Shown: positions 21,810-23,664, numbered from the stretch's first letter. The stretch: DNA of 53,635 nt from Bacilli bacterium (GCA_017540455.1 JAFYAZ010000026.1:1-53635), one strand, 5' to 3'. The notes: generated by a model from the sequence alone, not told the origin. Translations and numbers: made by a program.

Positions 21810-22034
21810 ATGCTACAACTCGATGTTTGGGTTTTCGTCCTTTCGTTGATTGGTGTCCTCATCGTCGGTGGTGTCGCAGGTTTCTTCCTTGCTCGTTACC
21901 TTATCAAAAAGAATCTCGAGAAGAACCCTCCAGTCACTGAAAAACAGGTTCGTGCTATGTATGAACAAGGCGGCCGCAAACTCAGCGAAAAGCAAGTTCG
22001 TGCCATCATGCACTCAATCAACAAGAACAGATAA
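21810..22034 (+). CDS. YneF/UPF0154 family small membrane protein
   Basis: N-terminal TM helix, then KNPPVTEKQVRAM...GRKLSEKQV. Confidence 0.88.
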   Translation: MLQLDVWVFVLSLIGVLIVGGVAGFFLARYLIKKNLEKNPPVTEKQVRAMYEQGGRKLSEKQVRAIMHSINKNR

Positions 22035-22049
22035 TTTCTTAAAAAATAG

Positions 22050-22078
22050 AAGAGTCACAAATTTGTGGCTCTTTTTTT
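22050..22078 (+). terminator. Intrinsic terminator after efp-yneF
   Basis: AAGAGTCACA-AATT-TGTGGCTCTT plus T tract. Confidence 0.85.
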
Positions 22079-22083
22079 AACTT

Positions 22084-22122
22084 TTTCTGAAAAATCCATT
22101 TTTCTTCTCTATATAGAAAGTG
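22084..22122 (+). promoter_or_regulatory. Putative alternative-sigma promoter motif, copy 2
   Basis: TTTCTGAAAAA-N12-CTCTATAT-AGAAAGTG; matches 7856-7894. Confidence 0.55.
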
Positions 22123-22372
22123 GAGAGGGATTCGAGTCAGCTTTTCTCGGCCGAGTATCGTTGCCGTTTGGCGGCGACAAAGCGTCTCGATGAATATTCC
22201 CTGTAATAGCTAATCACTATCGCAGTATCCGCTTGCAAGCGGTCTGGGCTTAAGAGACCTCCTAGCTCTTGAGCTTGATTACCGCGTTGCCTCTTCTTGT
22301 TCTTGTTATCGAGCGTACTCTTTAAAGGGATGTGCCCTGAGATGTCGAAACAAGAGAGAAGAGGTGCGTGGA
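22121..22372 (+). ncRNA. Candidate structured non-coding RNA of unknown family
   Basis: Five consecutive hairpins whose non-canonical pairs are mostly G-U on the + strand; lies between a terminator and the separate promoter of the next gene. Confidence 0.55.
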
Positions 22373-22383
22373 CCATATCTTCT

Positions 22384-22392
22384 TGGTATAAT
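22384..22392 (+). promoter_or_regulatory. Extended -10 promoter of a leaderless hypothetical gene
   Basis: TG-G-TATAAT, 7 nt before ATG 22400; no SD. Confidence 0.6.
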
Positions 22393-22399
22393 TTCATTC

Positions 22400-22858
22400 A
22401 TGAAATACAACCCTTGGAGAACTTCGCAATCATATAGCTTCTATCTAGTTAGCGTTTTGTATATCGCTAGCTTGGTGGTTGTGTTTTTGTTAGATCTTCT
22501 TACCAGCACCCCGATTCTTTGGGCATACGTAGTGGTATCTACGCTAGGGGAGCTGTACTTTTTGGTTATGTTCTTCGCCGACTGCCTTACCTATTGGAAA
22601 GGACACTGTCTCATCATCACAGACCAAGAACTAACGTTCTACGACGAAATAAAAAAGGAGAAGGTCAAAGTATCAATCGATAGCCTTCTGGAATTCAAAT
22701 ATGAGAACAGAGGAAAGATCTATTTCGTTTATAAAAAACATGGCAGAAATGAACATTCCTGTATAGCTCAAGTATTCACAAAAAAAGAAAGAGCCTTCTT
22801 AGATTCAATTATCGCGACCATTTACGAAAGAGACGCTAAGGTCAACCTTCATAACTAA
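22400..22858 (+). CDS. Hypothetical membrane protein (2 TM helices plus a small beta-rich cytoplasmic domain)
   Basis: Two hydrophobic helices followed by CLIITDQELTFYD...KIYFVYK; has its own promoter and terminator. Confidence 0.7.
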   Translation: MKYNPWRTSQSYSFYLVSVLYIASLVVVFLLDLLTSTPILWAYVVVSTLGELYFLVMFFADCLTYWKGHCLIITDQELTFYDEIKKEKVKVSIDSLLEFKYENRGKIYFVYKKHGRNEHSCIAQVFTKKERAFLDSIIATIYERDAKVNLHN

Positions 22859-22872
22859 AGTGTTTATCGAAA

Positions 22873-22903
22873 AAAATGTGCGGCAGTGGTTGTCGCACAT
22901 TTT
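22873..22903. terminator. Bidirectional terminator between the hypothetical gene and plsY
   Basis: AAAATGTGCGGCA-GTGGT-TGTCGCACATTTT. Confidence 0.8.
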
Positions 22904-22935: not shown

Positions 22936-23664
22936 TTACTTCCATTCGAGAGGCTTTTCTTCGCCTTTCTTGATACGCTCAATGTTTGAAGCATGACGGA
23001 TAACGAGAAGCACATAAACGATAACTTCGGCAACGAGCATTTCCCATCCGATGCAAACGCCGCCAACTAAGCCGAGATCCCAAAGGATGATTTTGAAGAA
23101 CGCTCCTCCTCCGATGATGATATCAAGCAAATAGAAAAGTCCGCTGATGCCGATGAGGATGGCTCCTGAAAGGAGAGAGGCCTTGGACATGACTTTCTTA
23201 AAGACAACAAGGAAGACAGTGAAGAAGACGGCTAAGGAAATAATGAATCCAAGCCAACTTGATCCGCCGAAGATAGCCATGAAGCAGGCAACGGCCTTCC
23301 CACCTTTGAATTTAAGCCATGGTGAGAAGCAGTGGCCAAAGGCAGCAGCGACACAAACTAGATAGTTATAAAGAACGCCATTATCGAACAAATCAGCAAG
23401 ATTGATTGGGCCAAAGCGAAGGAAAAGCCAAACTGTCCAGAAAGCAAAGACGGTTTTGGCGATATCAAGAACCATGACAAGGATACCGACCTTCTTGCCT
23501 AAAACACGGCCAGAATTGGTTCCGCCGGAATTGTGTGATCCATAGTCACGCGGATCGACGCCAAAAAAGAGTTTTCCGACAATGACACCGGTAGGAATGC
23601 TACCAACAAGGAAGCCCCAAATGAGACAGCCTAAGACGACAAGAATATTCAATAAGATGTTCAC
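22936..23664 (-). CDS. plsY: Glycerol-3-phosphate acyltransferase PlsY
   Basis: GSIP, GSHNSGGTNSGR, GHCFS...FKGGKAVA and RHASNI motifs; divergent from parE. Confidence 0.93.
   Translation of the reverse strand: MNILLNILVVLGCLIWGFLVGSIPTGVIVGKLFFGVDPRDYGSHNSGGTNSGRVLGKKVGILVMVLDIAKTVFAFWTVWLFLRFGPINLADLFDNGVLYNYLVCVAAAFGHCFSPWLKFKGGKAVACFMAIFGGSSWLGFIISLAVFFTVFLVVFKKVMSKASLLSGAILIGISGLFYLLDIIIGGGAFFKIILWDLGLVGGVCIGWEMLVAEVIVYVLLVIRHASNIERIKKGEEKPLEWK

Follow-up and report, generated by a model that had tools for sequence, protein, structure and literature searches.

A probable new structured RNA encoded beside a small membrane protein gene in a clade of uncultured rumen Bacilli

What is encoded in the spacer behind yneF in this uncultured Bacilli bacterium, part of which is richer in G+C than the rest, and is its product an RNA in its own right or the leader of the gene that follows? 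The window analysed here, i.e. the whole 53,635-nt stretch of DNA, is contig C47 of a genome assembly (G000) of 1.16 Mb that is 92% complete, and the public runs containing it are ruminant-gut, rumen and digester metagenomes. A first-pass annotation, made from the sequence alone, had proposed a stand-alone small RNA of several hairpins located between yneF and plsY. This placement is wrong, as the RNA is flanked by yneF and by an unannotated 152-aa ORF that the annotation had overlooked, and plsY, taken there to be the next gene, lies beyond that ORF on the opposite strand. The order is thus MBL-fold hydrolase, efp, UPF0154 (yneF-type), RNA, 152-aa ORF and plsY, and the features at the centre of this study are the following.

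21810-22034, UPF0154 (yneF-type) gene
22048-22075, + strand, intrinsic terminator of efp-yneF (12-pair stem, 4-nt loop, T-tail)
22087-22115, + strand, promoter-like motif of the RNA, recognised by eye (-35-like CTGAAA at 22087-22092, 17-nt spacer, -10-like TATATA at 22110-22115)
22120-22383, + strand, structured RNA of about 264 nt, as defined by MFE fold, RNAalifold consensus, covariance model and pair counts
22384-22392, + strand, extended -10 element (TGgTATAAT) of the gene that follows, whose ATG comes after a further 7 nt
22400-22858, + strand, gene of the orphan 152-aa protein, with two predicted membrane helices and a PH-like domain
22936-23664, - strand, plsY

The terminator scan places the yneF terminator directly ahead of the RNA, where the first-pass annotation had assumed it, and this terminator, with stem and T-run conserved in the homologues, is the upstream limit of the RNA unit. 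Folding of 22115-22380 gives a minimum free energy of -98.9 kcal/mol on the + strand, compared to -80.6 +/- 4.9 for shuffled sequences (z -3.75, none of 200 shuffles as good), and of -78.9 on the minus strand (z -2.40, 3 of 200 as good). The RNAalifold consensus of four homologues contains 89 pairs, and both it and the MFE fold include every stem that had previously been drawn by eye. The helix at 22132-22136/22186-22190, earlier regarded as a possible closing helix, is real and lies within the longer P3, and the fold contains three helices missing from the earlier list, P1, P2 and P4. The resulting architecture is a five-branch body made up of the following elements.

22122-22126/22378-22382, + strand, P1, 5 bp, closing the whole molecule
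22127-22200, + strand, 5' domain (P2-P5)
22127-22131/22196-22200, + strand, P2
22132-22144/22179-22190, + strand, P3
22146-22148/22153-22155, + strand, P4
22158-22164/22171-22177, + strand, P5
22201-22209/22217-22225, + strand, P6
22229-22233/22238-22242, + strand, P7
about 22246-22258/22265-22275, + strand, P8-9
22259-22264, + strand, P9 loop, which with its flanking letters reads ACCUCCUAG
22282-22371, + strand, long bulged hairpin (P10-P12), its 5' arm rich in pyrimidines, its 3' arm (GAAGAGGUG) rich in purines and Shine-Dalgarno-like
22282-22320/22339-22371, + strand, P10-11
22326-22329/22335-22338, + strand, apical P12

BLAST finds full-length copies of the element in three of 60 relatives, at 98, 84 and 81% identity. 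A covariance model built from four close sequences (R1), which was the sole model used for all searches and is weak for distant homologues, detects the RNA in eight of the 78 genomes of the genus, one copy (G067) being cut by a contig end and another (G017) being divergent at 46.8 bits. A ninth carrier, G015, is recognised by synteny. None of 139 sampled genomes from other genera of the order contains a match to R1, the RNA has no match in the phage and plasmid collections, and it is present at all six metagenome loci found via the neighbouring protein; including these, it is present at all 14 loci searched. All homologues belong to a single clade within one genus of uncultured rumen/gut Bacilli; in the rest of that genus yneF is followed by next to no spacer or by a long one that contains neither RNA nor ORF. 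Two such RNA-less spacers between yneF and plsY, of 457 nt in G085 (L077:1723-2179) and 363 nt in G008 (L074:1126-1488), contain no R1 match with filters off, no Rfam match and no ORF of at least 70 aa.

The homologues preserve the pairing. In the 14-row alignment A6, 97.5% of 1058 cells pair, compared to 44-52% after a shift of the partners by 1-3 columns, and 33 of the 89 pairs change on both sides, a count which none of 500 shuffles reaches (mean 7.0), many of these double changes being contributed by one divergent row that was aligned by the model itself. When the 12 distinct rows without this divergent one are recounted, 63 pairs are invariant, 11 show one-side changes, nine are compensatory and six are only disrupted, and such counts of change overstate the independent events because the homologues are close kin. 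In the same 12 rows 36 of 178 paired columns vary, compared to 40 of 83 unpaired columns. Compensatory change among homologues, named in the first-pass annotation as the check on its fold, is thus found in nine pairs among close kin, and the divergent homologue has the same architecture. The strand is indicated by the G-U pairs, which make up 113 of 963 paired cells when the divergent row is left aside and would be A-C mismatches on the other strand; this share fits a + strand RNA and bears out the bias that had been noticed by eye.

Conservation of the fold extends further than that of the letters. Among close kin nucleotide identity is 82-98% in the RNA, 73-87% in the membrane protein gene and 78-91% in plsY, and at greater distance the protein genes can still be aligned but the RNA no longer shows sequence similarity. 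In G017 the architecture is complete, with the closing helix in other letters, and G015 has at the same place a structured spacer of 370 nt (z -4.21). Both retain the long hairpin, the palindromic hairpins and, in different letters, the closing helix, of which three sequences occur across the lineages; the nucleotides outside helices are kept in neither. The best-kept piece across lineages is the purine 3' arm of the long hairpin, its purine tract being conserved in six homologues, and this hairpin is the sole part of the most distant homologue, G015, that matches R1 (11.1 bits, E 0.003, model positions 178-254). Over the four rows of alignment A3 the P9 loop never varies; in G017 a pyrimidine-rich loop takes its place, and in G015 it has no clear equivalent. 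Together with its flanks (ACCUCCUAG) the P9 loop has what we take to be a resemblance to the anti-Shine-Dalgarno sequence at the 16S 3' end.

The element matches no known RNA. Against Rfam 15 (4227 models) the whole window gives no match at gathering score, and a search of 21950-22550 at E <= 10 with permissive filters returns nine weak rows, of 13.8-28.1 bits against cut-offs of 36-100, all on the yneF terminator region (21979-22199) and none centred on the RNA. No OLE RNA row is seen in this search at E <= 10, and the homologous loci L058 and L061 likewise show nothing in the element at E <= 0.1. The comparison with Rfam that the first-pass annotation had suggested therefore finds no matching family, and its statement that hallmarks of tmRNA, SRP RNA, RNase P RNA, T-box and 6S RNA are missing agrees with model searches, ARAGORN, fold and distribution. 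A tmRNA, with its tRNA-like ends and tag frame, is ruled out, ARAGORN finding none in the window or in the source genome and tmRNAs of about 400 nt (121-129 bits) being located elsewhere in G076, G012, G017 and G015, four relatives that carry the RNA or its syntenic counterpart; the incomplete G000 assembly is the one from which tmRNA is absent. Identity with RNase P RNA or SRP RNA is ruled out by the presence of both at other places in G000, a type B RNase P RNA on C44 (188.6 bits) and a small SRP RNA on C7 (61.2 bits). The gene for RNase P RNA is located at the end of a contig (G000:C44:3-269, model positions 16-309), and two more partial matches with overlapping model positions occur at a contig start (G000:C20:6-135), which suggests an assembly break or a strain mixture. 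A T-box is rejected, there being no T-box row at E <= 10, no terminator after the RNA and an orphan membrane protein as the product of the downstream gene.

The 6S RNA model (RF00013) has no match in G000 at E <= 10 and none at E <= 1 in G076, G012, G017, G015 and G085, among them a 99%-complete one-contig genome, so the genus either has no 6S RNA or has a form invisible to the model. The element itself is not identified as 6S RNA, since it has no model match and five branches, and occurs in only eight of the 78 genus genomes by model and one by synteny. A protein-coding gene or pseudogene is also ruled out, as the 14 rows share no reading frame, their longest frames differing in strand and phase; an 86-aa minus-strand ORF of G000 is broken in other homologues, which are separated by indels of 1-3 nt. 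The element is unnamed in the titles and opening abstract lines of the papers that a full-text search on rumen and intergenic structured noncoding RNAs brought up, though supplementary motif lists might contain it. It is very probable that the locus encodes a real and new structured RNA on the + strand.

What, then, is the relation of this RNA to the gene behind it? The 152-aa protein has no Pfam family at E <= 0.01, and its AlphaFold2 model (pLDDT 80.9) shows two long membrane helices, a five-strand sheet and a C-terminal helix. The best Foldseek matches in the PDB are talin-F3, PH and PTB domains, at a weak E of 4e-3 or worse, and its language-model look-alikes, which serve as leads only, are membrane-anchored bacterial PH-domain families. 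Nothing marks the protein as RNA-binding, in that by our own count its soluble domain is not markedly basic. The family is very small, with 16 proteins in a collection of 5.8 billion, and among 1.84 billion representatives two 50% clusters match at E <= 1e-30 and three representatives at E <= 0.001, the third being a 752-aa protein at E 2.8e-4. The protein is encoded in eight of 78 genus genomes and, outside the genus, in none of the order sample (0 of 186) or the family sample (0 of 347), and has no match in the phage collection. In all seven genomes with a full-length RNA match the protein gene is directly downstream, and the eighth genome bearing the protein is G015, with its structured spacer at the RNA's place. 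Wherever the DNA permitted a check the RNA is never found without the protein gene. RNA and gene are one two-part insertion kept together, and the protein gene would have arisen or arrived with the RNA in this single clade of uncultured rumen/gut Bacilli.

Despite this linkage, RNA and gene each appear to be preceded by a promoter. The promoter-like motif ahead of the RNA, already pointed out in the first-pass annotation, is conserved in six homologues from three lineages as an upstream GAAAAA and a TATA(T/A), with a spacer that varies. The TATAAT of the next gene is invariant in six homologues from three lineages and stands 6-7 nt from an ATG or GTG, the letters between them varying. A scan for the two-hexamer consensus flags neither of these + strand promoters, both being recognised by eye and by conservation only. 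The 5' end of the RNA was guessed from the spacing to the promoter and from a single RNA-library contig that starts at 22120, and the 3' limit given is the end of P1 (22382), which in three lineages falls 1-8 nt before the ORF promoter. The earlier view that the RNA ends just before a separate promoter of the next gene agrees with this limit, the TGgTATAAT beginning at 22384. Between the two the terminator scan finds no terminator, and read-through from the RNA promoter into the ORF is therefore expected. There is no Shine-Dalgarno sequence near the ATG of the ORF, the purine tract of the long hairpin ending about 33 nt upstream.

A -10 element this close to a start codon is a recurring layout in G000. 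At ten of the 29 TGnTATAAT sites a start codon follows at a distance of 5-9 nt, and nine of these ten open an ORF of at least 60 aa, compared to a baseline of 27% of all ATGs. Seven of the eight other such ORFs have Pfam domains, namely CYTH, Exo_endo_phos (from residue 4), MutS2/Smr, acyltransferase, C39-like peptidase, flavodoxin-like and a weak PTS_EIIB. Under a less strict criterion, 55 of 293 TATAAT sites are followed at 5-9 nt by the ATG of a long ORF, and Shine-Dalgarno sequences are found at 363 of 760 long ORFs against a background of 15%. The nine TGnTATAAT genes, with the box 6-8 nt before the ATG, are located as follows.

22384-22402 of the window, + strand, gene of the 152-aa protein
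G000 C3:9505
G000 C3:7639-7660, - strand
G000 C7:11384-11405, - strand
G000 C16:33107-33130, - strand
G000 C22:2401
G000 C25:27285-27307, - strand
G000 C30:33109
G000 C30:38618

With its own leaderless-type promoter, a layout that recurs at eight other genes, and no Shine-Dalgarno sequence, the neighbour is most likely translated from a leaderless mRNA that starts after the RNA. Given this separate promoter the RNA is probably not the leader of that gene, as the first-pass annotation had also judged.

Metatranscriptome contigs give a weak hint that the RNA is expressed. Two RNA libraries from two studies contain parts of it at depths equal to or above that of efp, one contig (X15) covering 22120-22279 (160 nt) at depth 12.9, compared to 7.1 on efp, and another (X16) covering 22173-22330, but such contigs come without strand, start or end information and may reflect DNA carry-over. 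The RNA is uncovered in two of the four RNA runs (X18 and X19), and 22054-22114 and 22359-22602 are uncovered in every run, although contigs cannot show absence. In X16 loose ends occur at 22189 and 22242, and since the overhanging letters are those of the G012-type RNA variant, more than one species' version of the RNA is present in that sample.

Two short elements of the fold are perfectly self-complementary.

22146-22155, + strand, P4 word, 10 nt (CUCGGCCGAG)
22229-22242, + strand, P7 word, 14 nt (CCGCUUGCAAGCGG)

The P4 word takes the forms CCCGGCCGGG, CUUGGCCAAG and ACUUAGCUAAGU at the same place in homologues and remains perfectly self-complementary in every lineage despite these changes of letters, its four central 'loop' letters included, which go from GGCC to AGCU in G015. 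The P7 word is invariant in all 12 A6 rows that cover it, divergent G017 among them, and none of the five pairs of helix P7 ever varies. At the P7 place G015 has, as judged by eye, a near-palindrome with a self-complementary 6-nt loop, in which pairing is kept via G-U, a mismatch in DNA. Perfect words of this kind occur at 0.25-0.43 per RNA in shuffles (P 0.002-0.07 per homologue). A 3-bp tetraloop hairpin does not need self-complementary central letters, whereas an intermolecular duplex or a DNA site for a dimeric protein would, and the two elements may permit pairing with a second copy of the RNA. Natural RNA homodimers formed by palindromic pairing and kissing loops are documented (PMC12990946). 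RNAcofold gives dimer gains of -18.9, -16.1 and -15.9 kcal/mol, compared to about -11 +/- 3 for shuffles; being only about 2 sd beyond these, the gain is too weak to serve as support, and a domain-swapped dimer can be drawn for any RNA that folds on itself.

How the RNA works can be considered in the light of these data. We lean towards a functional RNA that is distinct from its neighbour's mRNA leader. An RNA gene of about 265 nt would be transcribed on the + strand from a sigma-A-type promoter of its own, directly behind the terminator of yneF, and its product would fold into a compact body with its ends paired by a helix that stops one base before the next promoter, from which the orphan two-helix PH-like protein would be made on a leaderless mRNA. 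The RNA would act as a folded molecule in its own right and not as a 5' leader. An alternative with a minor but appreciable chance of being correct is that the region is a long structured 5' leader or cis-regulator of the ORF, riboswitch-like or protein-binding, which controls how much of the ORF message is made or translated; in a variant of this idea transcription over the leaderless promoter might silence that promoter. An RNA strictly linked to a downstream gene is, in general experience, most often a cis-regulator, and this one has not been seen without its ORF where that could be checked, has a closing helix that ends within 1-8 nt of the ORF promoter in three lineages, and is separated from the ORF by no terminator, so that transcripts from the RNA promoter should reach it. 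The conserved Shine-Dalgarno-like arm, held by the pyrimidine arm, also resembles a sequestering helix. Against a leader stand the invariant TATAAT 6-7 nt before the start codon in six homologues, in a layout present at eight other genes, and the position of the purine tract, which ends about 33 nt upstream and leaves no Shine-Dalgarno sequence within reach of the ATG. Moreover, the region contains no terminator/antiterminator pair, and, in contrast to riboswitch ligand pockets, its unpaired nucleotides are not conserved in G017 and G015. The earlier proposal of a stand-alone small RNA is accordingly retained in part: the conserved promoter-like motif favours it, while the lack of a terminator before the ORF and the constant company of the ORF do not.

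It is distinctly unlikely that the RNA is a trans-acting base-pairing sRNA, whose P9 loop (ACCUCCUAG) would pair with the ribosome-binding sites of mRNAs and which would be linked to its neighbour by history only. C-rich-loop sRNAs of Bacillota of the RoxS/RsaE type do pair with ribosome-binding sites, this organism uses Shine-Dalgarno sites, the RNA has a promoter-like motif of its own, and the loop is invariant in close homologues and pyrimidine-rich in G017. But with about 265 nt and 89 pairs the molecule greatly exceeds typical base-pairing sRNAs in size and intricacy, it has no terminator hairpin with a U-tail, and the loop is without a clear equivalent in G015. Very little probability attaches to the idea that the conservation reflects no RNA function at all, being due to DNA-level sites such as palindromic operators or promoter architecture, or to recent descent of inserted DNA. 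The two best-kept elements are indeed perfect DNA palindromes and the homologues are close kin of very narrow distribution, yet at least nine pairs are compensatory among these close kin, the closing helix is maintained in three sequences, G-U pairs (113 of 963 cells) occur on the + strand alone, variation is lower in paired than in unpaired columns, the RNA region is more conserved than the flanking protein genes, and the second palindrome of G015 pairs (by eye) through G-U, a mismatch at the DNA level. Hardly credible, finally, is a very divergent housekeeping RNA that Rfam has missed, 6S RNA being the only one not found in the genome. Although RF00013 finds no 6S RNA in G000 or five relatives and the 5' and 3' ends of the RNA pair, this reading is largely refuted by distribution, as only 8-9 of the 78 species of the genus carry the RNA; relatives without it also have no detectable 6S RNA, and it therefore fills no 6S gap. 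Its body is five-branched, unlike a rod with a bubble at its centre, and G000 has RNase P RNA and SRP RNA at other loci, as four RNA-carrying relatives have tmRNA.

For the favoured functional RNA separate from the mRNA leader, the most likely role would be that of a partner or regulator of the accompanying membrane protein, by analogy with OLE RNA, which is about 600 nt long and occurs in hundreds of species, and its protein OapA. Here too an ornate non-coding RNA lies next to a small membrane protein gene, in this case as known from adjacency and co-inheritance. The commonest immediate downstream neighbour of OLE RNA is a small membrane protein gene, and OapA, a protein of four membrane helices, binds OLE and brings it to the membrane (PMC12265935); OLE RNA is further described as forming homodimers (PMC12990946). 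The present RNA differs from OLE in its size of about 265 nt, in its restriction to one clade of one genus and in having no Rfam OLE match at E <= 10, and the 152-aa protein, modelled with a PH-like domain behind two membrane helices, would differ from the four-helix OapA. A specific partnership between RNA and protein is accordingly a tentative suggestion drawn from this analogy. More speculative still, and improbable as it stands, is a miniature counterpart of the OLE particle in which the RNA would dimerise via its two self-complementary elements and would be held at the membrane by the two-helix PH-domain protein, both having been born or acquired together.

Other known RNAs share single traits with the element. 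Like the orphan motifs that came from comparing intergenic regions (raiA, ARRPOF, ROOL and the 224 candidates of one survey) it is long, intergenic, G+C-richer than the rest of its spacer and made of covarying helices, but none of those families, as in Rfam 15, matches it. The survey lists 224 structured RNA candidates (Weinberg et al. 2017, PMC5737381), and ARRPOF is a 255-nt RNA that dimerises through kissing loops (PMC12990946). In size class and in the pairing of its ends the element is like 6S RNA, which is undetectable in the genus, and it differs in its branched architecture and in its patchy distribution within the genus. A typical 6S RNA has a rod-like fold with a central bubble and is present throughout a lineage. 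As with riboswitches and structured leaders, the element is directly upstream of one always-linked gene with no terminator between, but unlike them it is followed by that gene's own leaderless-type promoter, has no expression platform and does not conserve its unpaired nucleotides at a distance.

If these interpretations are correct, uncultured Bacilli of the rumen have yielded a new family of structured bacterial RNAs of considerable size, and OLE/OapA would be joined by a second instance of genetic coupling between an ornate RNA and a small membrane protein. What such pairs do could then be tested in a far smaller system (265 nt and 152 aa), whose importance is limited by its narrow occurrence, in a single clade of one genus, and by the organism being uncultured.

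The leaderless TGnTATAAT genes, which are common in this organism, matter for annotation. The stretch 22342-22399 is where this shows: public calls of the neighbouring protein (P0001-P0011) give 164-204 aa and start inside the RNA, e.g. at an ATG within the long hairpin's 3' arm, while the conserved part of the protein begins MKYNPW; for want of a Shine-Dalgarno site these starts are likely over-extended. An N-terminal extension of the ORF through 22364-22399 was considered and rejected, as the phase from the upstream GTG to the conserved ATG or GTG differs between genomes (36 nt in G000, 35 nt in G012). At the other end of the gene, between it and the convergent plsY, an inverted repeat seen by eye at 22868-22900, with a stem of about 7 bp, an 11-nt loop that is beyond the limit of the terminator scan, and flanking A- and T-runs, looks like a two-way terminator.
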